Assembly: GCA_043826455.1 (NCBI GenBank)
Contig: JBDRQD010000072.1
Coordinates: forward strand, 1-45,185
From: Candidatus Bathyarchaeota archaeon
Lineage (GTDB): Archaea; Thermoproteota; Bathyarchaeia; TCS64
Direction: 5' to 3'
DNA length: 45,185 nucleotides
This document shows positions 6,001-12,000 of the stretch, in pieces; the stretch's first letter is position 1, and each line of letters starts with the position of its first letter. The position numbers were made by a program.

Positions 6001-9000
6001 CGGCCATGGCCGCGAAGTGGTACCTGTGGACGGTGTCCCGGACGAGGTGGTAACCGGGGAAAGGCAAGGTGTTCAGGTCCTCTATGAGGGGCCTGTCGGG
6101 GTTCACGTGTATTGCGCCGCCGTCCCGGTAGGTGAGCCCCGCAACGTTGGAGAGGGGCGAGCCATCCATCCTGGCCTTAACCAGCTCTGTGAATGTGACC
6201 TCGCCCTCACCCCTCACGATTGCATCTATCTCAGGGTACGTCACCAGCGACTCCTCGGCCAAGGACGAGAAGTGGATTCCCCCGGTGACTGTGAAGACGC
6301 CGGGGTCTGCCTTCTTGGCCAGCTGAAGCGTCCTGGCGGTGAGGTACGTGTTGCAGGTGGAGAGGCTGCTGGATGCTACGATGTCGGGGTTTGAAGTCTC
6401 GATGCGCCTGCTCAGCTCCTCCCAGGCAACCTGTTTGGCGTTGCAGTCGAGGACCTCTACCTCCACGCCCGGGAGCTCACGCTCCAAGTAGGCACCCAAC
6501 TGGATGATCCCGTAGGGGGGCGGCAGGTACTCGCCCATGATGAACCAGATGTCCTTGGGGGGCTCGACGAGTAGAACCTTCATCGTTCCAGGGATCATGG
6601 GGCCTCGTCCATTTAAATACTAAAGGTCCGCTGGAAAGGGGCGGAATTACGATGAGGGATCGAGTTCCTGAGGGGAGACACGCACAGACTCTAACCATGA
6701 CCTAACATGGGTATATGACGCCATATATCCGCAGATTTTCGATTACAAGGCTATATACAGCACATAAGACCAGTGCTGGAGGAGAACCGGACCCAAACCA
6801 TTCTAGAGGTAGCCTGCGGCATCGGCCGGGACCAGCTGATGATACAGGCAAAAAAAGGTTAGTGGGAGTCGAAGTACTCCCGGGCCTCCCTGAGAATCTC
6901 CGGCTTGGCTAGTAGCTCCACCAGCGTCATGCCCAGGGCCTTGGTGCCCAGCACCATGGCGTCCAGACCCTCCTTGGTCATGGAGGCGTCGGCCAGCTGC
7001 CTGCTGTGGCCGGGGGTCCCCTCGGGGGCTATCTTGATGTTGCTCCCCGCCACCGGCGTCTTCTGGGAGACGTCCCCGTAGTCCGTGGAGGCCATGGGTA
7101 TAGACCTAGTAGACTCCTGCCAGTCTTTCACAGGGGCGCCCAGGTCCACGTAGTTCTGCCACAGCGTCTTGATCATGGGTGTGTTCAGCTTCTTGCTGCT
7201 GTACAGCTTACGCTTGGTGATCTCCACTTCCACCCCCATGGCGTGGGCTGCACCCTCAGCGCAGCGGGCAACCTTGTCCACCATCTCCACCAGGTACTTC
7301 TCGTCGCTGCTCCTCACCCCGAACTGGCACACAGCCCTATCCGGGATGATGTTGCTGGCCAGGCCGCCCTCAGGTATGATGCCGTGGATCACCAGGTTGG
7401 CGTCTCTGCGAGCTTCCTGCCTCAACATATGGGTGGCCATGTAGCAGAGGGTGGCAGCGTTCAATGCGTTCCTACCCCTCTCGGGGCTGGCCGCCGCGTG
7501 GCTGGTCTGCCCCTTGAACACCATCTCCACCTGATGGATGCCCAGAGCCTGACCGCCCACGCCCCAGGCGCTCCCCGGGTGAAGCATCACCACCCCGTCC
7601 ACGTCGTCGAAGAACCCGTGGTCCGCCATAATCACCTTAGCCCCGGCGCTGGGCCCGTGGCCCTCCTCGGCCGGCGTACCCACCACCAGCACCTCACCGG
7701 CCAGCTCCCGCATCACCCTGCTCACCGCGATACCGGCCCCGATGGCCGAGGCGGCTATCAGGTTGTGGCCGCAGCCGTGGCCCACGCCCGGCAACGCGTC
7801 GTACTCGGCCAGGACTGCAACCCTCGGCCCCTTCTTCTTACCCTTGTAGGTGGCCACGAAGGCCGTGGGCATCCCGTAGACACCCGTCTCCACCTTGAAG
7901 CCGTGGTCCTCCAGGACCCCCGCCAGCTTCGCGAAGGCCTTGTACTCCTCGCTCCCCAGCTCAGGGTTCTCATACAAGTACCTGGCCACGTCCACTAGCA
8001 GCGGCCTCTTCTCGTCCACCGTCCTCTTGACGGCCTCTTTAAGCTTCTTGAGTTCAGACAACGCTATCACATACGGTTTGACGCATCACCACTATATCAT
8101 TATCCGTCTCCAACCCACTTTCACCTGCCTCCCCCCAGTGTATTCGTGTGCGTTCACGTTAAATGCCGTGGACCACGTGGAGAACCTTGAGAGTGTATGG
8201 GAGAAGTAGTTGAGGCCGGAAGCCTGGAAGGAATCGCCAGCACCACCCTGAAGAAGCTGCACAAGGCCGGGTTAGTCACCCTCGAATCCATCGCAGTTAC
8301 TCCCCCCCGCGAGATCGTGGAGCTAACCGGCATGGGCGTAGACACCGCCATAAAGGTGAACGCCCTGGCGCGCCTCAAGGTGGACCCCGGGTTCGTCTCA
8401 GCCCAGGAGATGCTGGAGATGCGCAGCCACATGAAGCGCTGCAGGACCGGCTCCAACGAGCTCAACCGCATACTGGGCGGCGGCGTCGAGACCGGCGTCA
8501 TCACCGAGCTCATCGGAGAGTTCGGCTCAGGCAAGACCCAGATATGCTACACTCTTTCCGTTTTGGCACAGCGACCCGTGGAGGAGGGCGGCCTCGGAGG
8601 ACGCGTATGCGTCATAGACACCGAGGGCACCTTCCTCCCCGAACGGATAGTCCAGGTAGCCGAGGCCAGAGGATACGACTCCAAGGAGATCCTAAACAAC
8701 GTCCTCATAGCCCGCGCCTACAACAGCGAGCACCAGATAATACTCATCAAGAACCTCCCCCAGGTCTGCCAAGAGCACGACGTCAAACTCGTCATAGTGG
8801 ACAGCATGATAGGCCACTTCAGAGGCGAGTACATAGGCAGAGGAACCCTGGCCGAGCGCCAGCAGAAGCTGGCCGGGGCCCTAGGCAACCTGATGAGGAT
8901 CGCTGAGGCCTTCAACCTGGCCGTCGTACTAACAAACCAGGTCCAGGCCAAGCCCGACACCGCCTACGGCGACCCCAACAAGCCCGCCGGCGGCCACGTC

Positions 9001-12000
9001 ATGGCCCACGCCTGCACCCACAGAATGTACCTCAGGAAGGGACGCGCAAACACCCGGCTGGCCCAGGTCATAGACAGCCCCTACCTCCCCGAGGAGAAGG
9101 TCCGGATCGCCATAACGCTGGCGGGAATCACCGACGAGGACGGCAGCTTCCCCAACTGGGACGACGAGGACGAGGCCAAGCCCAGGGAAGACGACGAGTA
9201 ACCCCCCTACCCGTGAACCCTCTGCATAAGCACAACCCAGAAGTTCATAACCACTATACCGAAGGCCTCCGCCATGGCCGTGGAAGGCCAAGGCACCAGG
9301 TAGGCCACCACTGGACTGATGAACCCCAACGCGGCGACCACCACCCCCAGATCCTTCTCACCCCTGCCGATGAGCCCCAGACCCCAGGCCGCGATGGCCA
9401 GGTCCGTCTGGGCGAAGAACCAGTAGCTTATGAAGCCGTGGGGTCGGGTTCCTGACGGGTAGACGCCTATGAAGATCAGGAATAGGCCGGCCATGGTCAG
9501 GAAGGCTCCGCCCATCGTCTCCAGCTTGTTACTGGAGTCCTCCAGGCATCTTAGGGAGTAGAGGATTATGAGGGCGCCTGATAGCATCATGCCCGCGTTG
9601 TAGAGGTTGGGGTCAGCGGCCAGGGGGCCGCCCAGGTCGCTGAAGGCGTGCTCCGTGAAAATGAACCACGGGTTGACGCTGATGGTGTAGGCGAAGATCA
9701 CCCACGCCACGATGGCAGCAGCCACGCCACAGTACCTGGTGACAGCGCCGAAGGCCTTATTCATCAAATAATTTTAACGGAACTCCCAGATAACCTTTAG
9801 CCCCTCAGGTACTCGAAGGGGTCCCTGTAGCCGGCGTCCCGGAGGACCTTCACCAGCCTCTCCTTGAGCCTGCCCACGCCCACACCCGTCTTGGCGCTCA
9901 CCGGGAAGACGCTGTCCCTGGCAGCCGGGTCGCCCCCAGATATACCCTCTATGAAGGCCTCTAGGTTGGCCACCACCTCCTCCTCGCCGCCCTTATCGAT
10001 CTTGTTGGCTGCCACCAATGGGAAAGCCCCAAGGGTGTCCCGGAGGTAGCCCACCATCTCCACGTCCAGGCTCATGATGCCCTTCCTGGAGAGCCTCTCC
10101 TCCGTCTCCAGGAACGTGGTGATGTTCACCACGTGGATAACCGCCGCGATGCTGCCCTTGTGGTCCTCGATGAAGTCCAGGATGCTGTCCTTGGTCCTGT
10201 CCTCCCACTTCCTGCTGCCCCCGGCCTTGCTCCCGTAGCCCGGCATGTCCACCAGGGTAAGGCCCGGGGCCACGGGGTACCTCCTGATGCTGGTGGTGGT
10301 ACCCGGCCGCTTACCTATGGGCAGCTTCAGGCCGGTGAGGGCCCGGATGACGGTGCTCTTACCGGCGTTGGGTCTGCCGGTGAAAACGATGTAGCGCTCA
10401 GGCATGGGTTAATAGAAGCGGTGGTACGTGAAAAAGGGTGGGGTCACAGCTGGACGTTGAACTCCAGGCGCTGGGCCAGCTCCTTGTACCTGTTCCTTAT
10501 GGTGACCTCGGTGACCTGAGCCTCCTTGGCTATCTCGCCCTGGGTCCGCCTCTCGTCGGTGAGCTGGCTGCTTATGTAGATGCAGGCCGCGGCGATGCCC
10601 GACGGGCCTCGGCCGCTGGTGAGCTTCATCTCGGACGCCTGGTTGAGTATCAGCATGGCCAGTCTCTCCGTCTCCCCCGTCAAGGCCAGCTTGTTCACTA
10701 TCTTGCTGATGTAGCCCTGGGGGTCCACCTGGGGCACCGTGGGCTTCAGCTCCCTGAGCAGGAACCTGTAGTTGCGGGCGGCCTCCTTCTTGGTGATGTT
10801 GGCGGCGGCGGCCACGTCCTCCAGGGTCCTGATGATCCCGCACTGCCTGCAGGCCATGTAGATGCTGGCCACGGCCACGCTCTGGATGGTCCTACCGCGG
10901 ATTAGCTGCTTCTGGATGGCCCGACGGTATATCATGCTCGAGGTCTCTATGACGTTTCTGGGTAGGTTCAGCTTGTAGCTTATCTTGCTCATCTCGCTGA
11001 GAGCGTGAGCCAGGTTACGCTGGGTGCTGTCCGACACCTTGCTCCGCCTGTGCCACTTCCTTAGCCTGTACAGCCTGGCCCTCTCCTCCGGGCTCAGCCT
11101 CCTGCCCGACGCGTCGCGGTCCTGCCAGCCTATTGTGGTGCTCAGCCCCTTGTCGTGGATGGTCCACGTCACGGGGGCGCCGACCCTGGGCAGCTTGTCC
11201 CGCTGCTCCTGGTCGAAGGCCCTCCACTCGGGCCCCTGGTCGATGAGCGTTGACGAGATCACGAATCCGCATCCCTGGCACACCAGTTCACCGGTCTCGT
11301 AGTCTCGTAGAAGGTTGGCCCCGCCGCACTCGCTGCAAGCTACTTTAGAACGCAGTTTCGCTGTCAAAGAACCCCTCACGAGAATTATGAATATGGAAAA
11401 AGCCTGCCTTATAACTGTTTTTGATTCTATCTCCCCGAAAAGGGCTTGATTTTCTCAGATATTGAGAAAAAACGATAGTTTATGGTTTTACAGTAAGTTC
11501 CGGTTAACCCGCGTATGTTTGCCTAATTACTCGCCCCTCCATAGTATTTACACGTTACTGGCACTCACGGTTTCGCCCCGTGGAACCTGTGAACGGCGCT
11601 CACGGCTCCTTGGGGCTTAGGATGCTTGGAACCGGTAAATGTAAAAGGGGGGACTACATCACTGAAAAACATCAAGGAGACACCAAGTTGGTGAAACGTG
11701 TCTACGACTTCACAGAAGGCAACAAGGGAATGAAGGACCTCCTAGGTGGAAAGGGGGCCAACCTTGCCGAGATGACGAGCCTGGGCCTACAGATACCACT
11801 CGGGTTCATCATAACAACTAAAACCTGCATCGAGTTCTTCGAGGCCGGGGGCAAGGTCCCCGACGGCCTCTGGGACGAGGTGGAGAAGCATGTGGCGACC
11901 CTGGAGAAGAATACGGGGAAAAAGTTTGGCGACACCAAGGCGCCCCTGCTGGTCTCAGTGAGGAGCGGCGCCCCCGTCAGCATGCCCGGCATGATGGACA

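Follow-up and report, generated by a model that had tools for sequence, protein, structure and literature searches.

A conserved promoter box before a second radA gene of Bathyarchaeia is a candidate site of an Orc1-2-type Cdc6 in a DNA-damage regulon

In Candidatus Bathyarchaeota archaeon (Bathyarchaeia; TCS64; GCA_043826455.1, labelled G000 here) and its relatives, a conserved one-strand site at fixed spacing precedes a second radA gene (radA2), the iRadA-PPB2-polB2 operon, nreA and cdc6, as well as, less widely, rfcS, DUF763, a CetZ-like tubulin gene, some housekeeping radA1 genes and several small genes, and in part SMC. This box very probably regulates a set of repair genes, and the sole Cdc6 of the genome is its probable, predicted binder. 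With a probability of about two in three, the box would be the site of an Orc1-2-type Cdc6 acting as the transcription activator of an autoregulated regulon that is switched on by damage. The regulon is best read as a putative variant of the one in Sulfolobus that differs in its members, has a longer spacing, and comes with no Orc1-1 found. The window, i.e., the whole analyzed stretch of 45,185 nt (contig JBDRQD010000072.1), carries radA2 and its promoter (Table 1).

Table 1. Features of the radA2 locus in the window.
Feature	Position	Strand	Remarks
Box core CCACTTTCAC (contains ANTTTC)	8115..8124	+	Sequence; family-site columns
Spacer CTGC, 4 nt, between CCACTTTCAC and CTCCC			Window sequence
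C-rich tail CTCCC(CCC)	8129..8136 (CTCCC = 8129-8133)	+	Starts 4 nt past core
TGCG (TRCG) element	8149..8152	+	9 nt upstream of TATA start; upstream edge of BRE position
TATA-like GTTAAATG	8158..8165	+	43 nt past the start of the box
Second full-length RadA, 334 aa, ORF, ATG 8197	8197..9201	+	Both Walker motifs intact (A, GEFGSGKT)
Divergent amidohydrolase gene	6859..8070	-	TIGR01891; neighbor only, outside regulon claim

The radA2 product is a member of the RadA/Rad51 family, being full length with both Walker motifs and scoring above the RadA cut-offs of NF003301 (E 6e-118) and TIGR02236, and in the tree it forms a branch of its own, apart from housekeeping radA1. Two full-length copies are present, as described previously, in the window and on contig C12; they share 89.9% identity, and the window RadA is 44% identical to the housekeeping product encoded on C57. 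The nucleotide identity of the two copies is 91.9% over 945 nt, with a shared stretch of 1187 bp, and an integrase adjoins the C12 copy, which may be a paralogue or contamination (7.2%). The spacing given earlier for the promoter also holds, with 82 nt from the box start to the ATG and about 43 nt to the TATA box, and in relatives the box is kept while the sequence upstream varies. RNA contigs of two studies start with adapter at position 8198, a weak hint of a transcript start near the ATG. The radA2 genes of relatives are found in the RNA libraries of four ordinary metatranscriptomes, which is a matter of presence only, with no bearing on inducibility; these runs were read as contigs, with word shares of at most 0.22, and carry no information on level or induction.

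The sites are single, lie on one strand, and are locked to the TATA spacing, with a box-to-TATA offset of 41 or 43 nt in 36 of 41 radA2 promoters and of 43–44 nt in most nreA promoters. The TRCG element is present in 33/41 radA2 and 18/23 iRadA promoters. Over 100 family sites, TTTC is conserved at 98–100%, A at 95% and C at 97%, and the columns of the CYCYC tail read C100, C100 and C99. Such a site might reflect chance, promoter DNA that is generally rich in pyrimidines, or a BRE that serves a divergent promoter on the other strand, as GTGAAAG is common near start codons and TGAAAGT, the reverse complement of the core, resembles the BRE. This very improbable explanation is largely refuted: its divergent-promoter form was rejected by the occurrence of a reverse-strand TATA right beside the core in 0/39 radA2, 0/23 iRadA, and 1/40 cdc6 promoters, the site is found at only a small fraction of gene starts, and a blind prediction made for nreA held.

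In the genome as a whole, the strict pattern of the box has three matches, whereas the looser CACTTTCAC-N3-6-CTC has 11, eight of which sit 70–86 nt upstream of an ORF starting with ATG; one more lies 84 nt from an ORF that begins with TTG. A two-block matrix trained solely on 20 radA2 promoters from other genera placed 12 of the 18 sites scoring at least 18.8 at 69–87 nt before an ORF. Scores of at least 18 at 62–100 nt were reached by 9 of 2907 called gene starts (~0.3%); in three intervals on either side, the corresponding numbers out of 2899 were 0, 2, and 1. Of 115 matrix matches, 15 fell elsewhere than upstream of targets, which over 1,227,826 strand positions is a background of approximately 1e-5 per position. 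The membership proposed in the preliminary description is largely borne out: the box is present at C12, before the complete iRadA-PPB2-polB2 operon (C73), at C25, before cdc6 (C60), the C38 tubulin gene, and DUF763, and at C64, C65, and C81, with distances to the start of 69–97 nt in the regulon promoters. An ESM Atlas search with the 61-aa C64 protein returned nothing informative, the best score being 0.82. Two sites were not confirmed: the one on C10 is without a TATA at the usual spacing, and the TFB gene on C57, which we reject as a member, scores 2.7, the best among the 11 TFB-like genes of the genome, with no orthologue promoter out of 26 reaching 11. A core-only match at the correct spacing was seen by eye in about five of these 26 promoters.

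Counts in the relatives, which are not independent samples, include G000 and use a threshold of 15 unless stated. The box is found in 41/50 radA2 promoters (20 of these 50 formed the training set; 22 of 30 held-out ones carry it), 41/46 cdc6 promoters of the order, 20/29 iRadA promoters (24/29 at a threshold of at least 11), and 5/9 tubulin promoters. The blindly predicted nreA promoters carry it in 23/30 cases, or 27/30 at a score of at least 11, at 71–82 nt before the start; in Haloferax, NreA acts in the repair of damage caused by mitomycin C, according to passages of PMC4929162. The case of SMC is mixed: the box at C25 stands, but only 3/29 promoters of relatives have it, which makes SMC a partial member, and in its putatively SMC5/6-like operon SMC_N was the one match, the two downstream ORFs having none in Pfam or NCBIfam. 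When four other genomes were scanned with the exact pattern, 30 matches were obtained, compared with 11 for controls with the pattern reversed; among 29 distinct sites, 17 lie before homologues of genes that have the box in G000. In sister families with an HTQ-type Cdc6, the box at family spacing was absent before cdc6 in all four usable cases (G012, G004, G008, and G002), as well as before radA2 and tubulin. Relatives carry a DUF72-cdc6-radA2-iRadA cassette. The adjacency of cdc6 and radA noted previously was recovered in 8 of 20 distant radA2 loci fetched, but the Cdc6 there is a divergent paralogue of another subclade and those radA2 genes are without the box. We infer an autoregulated, SOS-like regulon, as did the preliminary description, from the box before cdc6 itself and before repair genes, including nreA, which that description had missed along with rfcS and some radA1.

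The candidate regulator is the only TIGR02928 match (C60) in a genome that is 97.7% complete. In two trees with clades anchored by PDB structures and reference-protein names it falls on the Orc1-2 side, as suggested earlier, together with Sulfolobaceae Orc1-2; the HTQ clade, comprising Sulfolobaceae and Pyrobaculum proteins and this Cdc6, has an SH-like value of 97 (FastTree), and the Orc1-1 clade is separate with a support of 100 (quick IQ-TREE). The Orc1-1 recognition helix LTQRR is replaced in this Cdc6 by RAHTQ. Residues R353, H355, T356, Q357, G127, and R383 are kept and R354, R381, and L128 are changed to Ala, Met, and Tyr, respectively, with a shorter wing; R381 and R383 confer specificity in Sulfolobus Orc1-2 (numbering and roles as in passages of PMC12490963 and PMC9738581). 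A single-sequence AlphaFold model (pLDDT 41) was set aside.

The repair regulon could also be real and its box bound by another factor, either one of the 11 TFB-like proteins or an HTH regulator, with cdc6 merely a target. The common TRCG element at the BRE edge and the loss of R354 and R381 would fit such a factor, as would the presence of the same core before radA in halophile-type and methanogen-type genomes, an HTQ-type Cdc6 not having been found in the five genomes of that phylum searched. We nevertheless consider this improbable: Orc1-2 is the only proven binder of ANTTTC (PMC6061795), the box follows cdc6 of the Orc1-2 side and not Orc1-1, and four genomes of the order without a detected HTQ-type protein have no box above chance (three matches versus six controls).

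A further unlikely possibility is that Cdc6 does bind the box, but that the signal is the replication or cell-cycle state, with the sole Orc1/Cdc6 doubling as initiator and timing radA2, rfcS, SMC, and tubulin. An Orc1-1 query found no Orc1-1 in G043, G027, G039, G031, or G016; rfcS, SMC, and tubulin are not specific to repair; the single Cdc6 of Pyrobaculum is of the same type and has ACTTTC and GAAAGT in inverted order upstream; and S. solfataricus Cdc6-2 binds origins, as stated in passages of PMC5333045. However, the sites are single, on one strand and tied to TATA, only two core pairs within 400 nt and no ORB cluster or origin-like array were found in G000 with an ORB pattern, the gene upstream of cdc6 ends immediately before the box, and iRadA-PPB2-polB2 and nreA are damage-tolerance genes.

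The predicted Cdc6 site shares with the Sulfolobales DDRE (consensus AATAGTTTCRGWDTACTCWS, bound by Orc1-2; PMC6061795 and passages of PMC9738581 and PMC12490963) the A-N-TTTC-R core, the CTC six nt after TTTC noted in the preliminary description, the location upstream of TATA, and the presence before cdc6 itself and the PolB2 operon, with a Cdc6 of the same clade that keeps T356. The flanks are CCAC/AC here and ATAG/RG there, the core-to-TATA distance is ~40–42 nt versus ~21 nt (counted on L167-L170), the element lies 69–97 nt rather than 23–55 nt before the start, and the members are radA2, nreA, rfcS, and tubulin instead of tfb3, ups, and ced; R354 and R381 are not kept and no Orc1-1 was found here. 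By sequence, the closest published motif, to which the preliminary description does not refer, is the Halobacterium NRC-1 UV motif TTTCACTTTCA, which in passages of PMC2556686 precedes radA1, top6B, vng17, and vng280, as well as radA of Methanospirillum. Its CACTTTCA core is identical and likewise lies between a RadA gene's TATA and the sequence farther upstream, but in a tandem TTTCA repeat, usually without the CTCYC tail, and ~26 nt from TATA. The iRadA-PPB2-PolB2 mutasome operons have orc1/cdc6 (enriched near polB2), DUF72, or lexA as neighbors, and the passages of PMC11791011 describe neighborhoods and not a binding site; the operon itself is complete here, whereas the cassette is scattered, its parts joined by a common promoter box. 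ORBs bound by Orc1-1 involve the same protein superfamily and a TTTC plus C/G run; in contrast, the present sites are single and promoter-locked, with no clustered or inverted boxes by an AT-rich gap. In the bacterial SOS system, LexA, a repressor that can be cleaved and that binds a palindrome, is the single autoregulated factor in control of recombinase and error-prone polymerase genes and of genes of the division type. The predicted arrangement here is alike in its one autoregulated factor over such genes, but its site lacks symmetry and lies before the core promoter, where an activator would bind.

The box core is also found before cdc6 genes of the Orc1-2 type in other Thermoproteota and some Thermoplasmatota. 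Outside the order, the core-plus-tail pattern is found before 10/49 Orc1-2-side cdc6 genes versus 0/13 Orc1-1 genes (shuffle mean 0.2), and with the core alone as the pattern, the cdc6 set of Thermoproteota has reverse-strand matches as well (10/49 vs 18). All nine acidic halophile-type radA promoters have the core at −55 to −61, and cdc6 promoters of Methanomassiliicoccales had no box by eye. For the halophile/methanogen "YTR" Orc promoters the link is only suggestive, because reverse-strand matches (nine, of which eight are GTGAAAG-type words 18–37 nt before the start) are no fewer than those in sense (8/30). For the polB2 operons of the phylum as a whole the result was negative, with no strict box in 13 loci with upstream DNA and one plausible core; 14 of 24 matched loci were inspected, the remainder being omitted as likely other PolB types, and the operon start was not reached in three. 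We can tentatively speculate, at somewhat less than even odds, that a single "SOS box" of ancestral archaeal origin (A-N-TTTC-R, in many cases followed by a CTC tail), recognized by a non-origin Orc1-2 branch of Cdc6, extends across Thermoproteota, Thermoplasmatota, and Halobacteriota. The DDRE of Sulfolobus, the window box, and the Halobacterium motif would then be one element, the regulator in halophiles would be their conserved non-origin Orc, which has an "LGYTR" helix, and in this family, with Orc1-1 seemingly lost, the damage regulator would be the only Cdc6 left and would control the second RadA. A box shared so widely is plausible but patchy in its distribution: polB2 operons outside the order are without it.

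In Sulfolobus, Orc1-2 contacts ANTTTC via its winged helix and ISM and is an activator of dpo2 and of the gene that encodes it; phosphorylation of T356 switches it off (PMC6061795; passages of PMC9738581 and PMC12490963). By analogy, the winged helix of the present Cdc6 would read ACTTTCA, while the C-rich tail would be read either by the ISM or through a second contact. Bound ~20 nt farther from TATA than in Sulfolobaceae, Cdc6 may help TFB/TBP onto promoters with a weak BRE. Damage would activate Cdc6, and positive feedback on cdc6 would amplify the response, yielding extra recombinase, the error-prone PolB2 complex, a clamp loader subunit, and PCNA-dependent repair. The loss of R354 and R381, the shorter wing, the missing TFB3-like member, the 0/13 polB2 loci outside the order, the sister families without the box, and the reverse-strand matches of the core-only pattern count against this explanation.

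A coordinated damage response in archaea has been shown only for Sulfolobales, and the Discussion of PMC6061795 asks whether other Orc1-2 members act likewise. The apparent absence of Orc1-1 raises the question of how replication starts in these cells; if the damage regulator is the sole Cdc6, replication may therefore start from this Cdc6 or by recombination. A question is also opened for halophiles, namely whether one conserved non-origin Orc binds the UV motif, its regulator having been left unnamed in 2008 in the passages of PMC2556686. For an abundant uncultured lineage, the analysis provides a defined site together with a candidate for its regulator and a list of members, by which DUF763 and the small proteins of unknown function become repair candidates.

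The box before the second RadA gene (radA2) consists of a core containing ANTTTC, a spacer of 4–5 nt and a C-rich tail, located upstream of a TATA-like stretch.

Box, promoter elements and second RadA gene in the window
Feature	Position	Remarks
Box core CCACTTTCAC	8115–8124	Followed by spacer CTGC
C-rich tail CTCCC	8129–8133	3' of the CTGC spacer
TGCG element	8149–8152	Between box and TATA-like stretch
TATA-like GTTAAATG	8158–8165	Upstream of ATG at 8197
radA2	ATG 8197	334-aa ORF; full RadA, above two curated cut-offs; Walker A and B intact

As first described, the genome (G000; 2.95 Mb in 81 contigs, 97.7% complete, 7.2% contaminated) carries two copies of this gene, one in the window and one on contig C12, and the second RadA is 44% identical to the housekeeping RadA (radA1, contig C57). 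The two copies share 89.9% amino acid identity, and the radA1 promoter contains no box. The C12 copy (within G000:C12:2045–7165, L075) is located between a phage-type integrase and a same-strand downstream Hef-like DEAD helicase, and its region and the window have just 1187 bp in common. A TFB-like gene, one of 11 in the genome, is found at 10444–11379, 1.2 kb from radA2, with no box in its promoter. The ORF at 14904–15707 resembles, by eye, an SplB-type radical SAM protein; passages of PMC4929162 link SplB-type genes to Nre genes.

The box is a real element. A two-block matrix was trained on 20 radA2 promoters, none of them from the genus of G000. With this matrix, 12 of the 18 sites scoring at least 18.8 in G000 lie 69–87 nt upstream of an ORF. 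Among 2907 gene starts, taken from a crude gene model made for this analysis, 9 have a site scoring at least 18 at 62–100 nt; for three flanking windows the corresponding counts are 0, 2, and 1 of 2899. Among 1,227,826 strand positions in loci of the order (relatives within what the preliminary description labels TCS64), 115 sites score at least 15, and just 15 of them fall outside the upstream regions of radA, cdc6, and iRadA (the RadA-like gene that opens the iRadA-PPB2-polB2 operon); two of these 15 are SMC promoters, and one is an iRadA promoter with a mis-called start. A BRE of a divergent promoter was ruled out as the source of the core, with a reverse TATA beside it in 0/39 radA2, 0/23 iRadA, and 1/40 cdc6 promoters. 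The box sites in G000 are not clustered in an origin-like array, nor was a cluster matching the usual ORB consensus detected in this genome.

Membership was counted at a threshold of 15 unless stated, with G000 included, for the best 30 loci per search of 61 genomes and extra loci fetched for radA and cdc6. The preliminary description had assigned to the box radA2, cdc6, the RadA-like/polB2 operon, an SMC operon, a CetZ-like tubulin, a TFB, DUF763, and small genes. The first three are borne out: the box precedes 41 of 50 radA2 orthologues (22/30 outside the training set, where the eight misses are loci of genera g3, g14, and g15), 41 of 46 cdc6 genes, and 20 of 29 iRadA genes (24/29 at a score of at least 11). 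The cdc6 count excludes two loci lacking upstream DNA, as well as an Orc1-1 gene and a divergent copy; its misses are three genes of family f4, one of f2, and a partial gene of G013 (13.6). A TRCG located 9 nt before the TATA is common to radA2 (33/41) and iRadA (18/23) promoters. The gene nreA, chosen solely from the score-rank list (10.9 in G000) and identified only afterwards (NF041387, E 2e-82, with a score below that family's halophile cut-off), has sites of at least 11 in 27 and at least 15 in 23 of 30 promoters, at 71–82 nt and with the TATA mostly at +43/44. Tubulin, present in 9/61 genomes, keeps its place within the family (5/5) but not in f4 (0/4). For SMC, 3 of 29 promoters reach 15 and 8 reach 10, with ACTTTC alone in 16/29; TFB drops out, as 0 of 26 promoters reach 11. 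The radA1 promoters with a site (3/20 at 15 or more, 5/20 at 11 or more) carry it in the form CAGTTTCA-N4-5-CTCTC at offset 37–38. Exact-pattern scans of four relatives (G043, G027, G039, and G005) gave 30 matches versus 11 controls. Of the 29 distinct sites, 17 lie upstream of homologues of radA2 (4), cdc6 (2), iRadA (2), rfcS (2), radA1 (1), DUF763 (1), and the small C64 (3) and C65 (2) genes, which retains DUF763 and small genes among the members.

A family of uncharacterised proteins of 58–77 aa that start like 'IKVVEHGPFG' (G000:C64:45846–46022, C19:7896–8129, L249, and L254) is likewise preceded, in three genera, by box-like sites with the usual spacing; those tested have no Pfam or NCBIfam match. 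In family f4 (L505, L513, L509, L500, and L512), a box with the TATA at +39 to +42 precedes small genes of G004 and G010, and the cdc6 of these two genomes has ACTTTCAC just some 45 nt before the start. Two further sites, G000:C36:77904 (21.3) and C12:1502 (15.1), share near-identical downstream sequence and lie 130–160 nt before small proteins resembling, by eye, ribbon-helix-helix regulators.

The candidate regulator is the single Orc1/Cdc6 of G000 (G000:C60:1923–3092), whose closest solved relative is Pyrobaculum Cdc6 (1FNN). In a 65-row FastTree it falls within a clade with an HTQ recognition helix (support 97), together with proteins named Sulfolobaceae and Pyrobaculum, both included in the phylum of G000; the Orc1-1 clade, anchored by 2V1U and 2QBY_A, is separate at support 100 in a 91-row quick IQ-TREE. 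The Sulfolobus reference in our alignment matches the numbering in passages of PMC12490963 and PMC9738581 (H355-T356-Q357, R381-G-R383, and G127-L128). The G000 protein keeps R353, T356, R383, and G127, and does not keep R354, R381, and L128. An Orc1-1 query found no Orc1-1 in G043, G027, G039, G031, and G016, two of which are single contigs, and only the sequence of G013, among those of the order placed in the tree, is Orc1-1. In G013, the Orc1-2-type cdc6 (L134, G013:C38:67518–68096) matches residues 4–204 only, with stops beyond; Orc1-1 is retained, and weak boxes persist before this gene and radA1. Five genomes with an HTQ-type protein gave 18 pattern matches versus 4 controls, few before recognisable genes, and four without a detected one gave 3 versus 6. 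Upstream of the single cdc6 of the Pyrobaculum family (L175 and L176), ACTTTC or TTTTCA and GAAAGT or TGAAAA lie ~40 nt apart in inverted order.

The reported proximity of cdc6 and radA in relatives holds, as they adjoin in 8 loci, in most of the inspected ones in the order DUF72-cdc6-small ORF-radA2-iRadA, but this Cdc6 belongs to a separate subclade with neither HTQ nor wing. The cassette radA2 promoters lack the box and have in its place a C run, CCCCCTCCCCC, ~22 nt before the TATA, like the tail without its core. Cassette loci are L042, L045, L046, and L048, and also L041, L043, L044, L047, L545, L546, and L551; an integrase-like ORF lies upstream in L042.

Within the class, the full box precedes radA2 in 2/2 f11 genomes (111–119 nt), the core is found at −63 in three f47 genomes, and neither was seen in the remaining 10 of 15. 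In the phylum, 49 best-hit cdc6 genes from other orders were compared: 10 have the core with the tail, versus 3 on the reverse strand and a shuffle mean of 0.2, and among 13 Orc1-1 genes none has it; the core alone precedes 18/49, yet also 10/49 on the reverse strand. Four Sulfolobaceae cdc6 promoters have AGTTTCGG...TCT ~21 nt before the TATA, counted by eye. In named loci dominated by Thermoplasmatota (best 80 of 239), the strict pattern occurs in 7/78 (reverse 0, shuffle 0.4), and TTTCRC..CCCC at −65 to −67 in ~20/77 by eye, in apparently related genomes. In one Thermoplasmatota genome whose cdc6 is also preceded by the box, a full box (L421, G192:C35:2863) lies 95 nt upstream of a gene resembling, by eye, a DinG/XPD-type helicase. 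One Methanomassiliicoccaceae radA promoter carries TACTTTCAG at −65. Against a uniform distribution, the strict box was found in 0/13 polB2 upstream regions outside the order.

In the phylum of G191, which we take to be Halobacteriota, the 30 best of 95 radA matches include 12 with the core upstream, versus 0 on the reverse strand and 1.2 in the shuffle; two of the 12 have the full tail. The core also lies at −55 to −61 before 9/9 acidic halophile-type radA genes. No HTQ-type Cdc6 was found in five genomes of this phylum, which contain instead a conserved Orc clade with a 'YTR/YRK' helix, matched in 75/111 genomes; its promoters carry the core in 8/30, with 9 reverse-strand matches. The core before halophile-type radA genes matches TTTCACTTTCA, a UV-linked Halobacterium motif whose regulator is given as unknown in passages of PMC2556686. 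PMC10123103 describes a halophile in which damage induction is mediated by a viral Orc1.

For Sulfolobus Orc1-2, passages of PMC6061795 describe binding, activation, and autoregulation, with 21-fold induction of dpo2 and 6.7-fold of orc1-2, and excerpts of PMC9738581 and PMC12490963 describe a phospho-switch; related literature includes parts of PMC12890983, PMC7776575, PMC11791011, and PMC5333045. Listings of mostly freely accessible literature showed neither a description of this kind of box or regulon for Bathyarchaeia nor one that ties the halophile motif to Orc1-2. The site, its spacing, its members, and the clade of the Cdc6 are established, and a repair regulon behind the box is well supported. 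In G000, Cdc6 would bind at the box and the genes would be induced by damage. The box system is probably another version of the Orc1-2/DDRE system, in which Orc1-2 of Sulfolobus binds the ANTTTC damage element.
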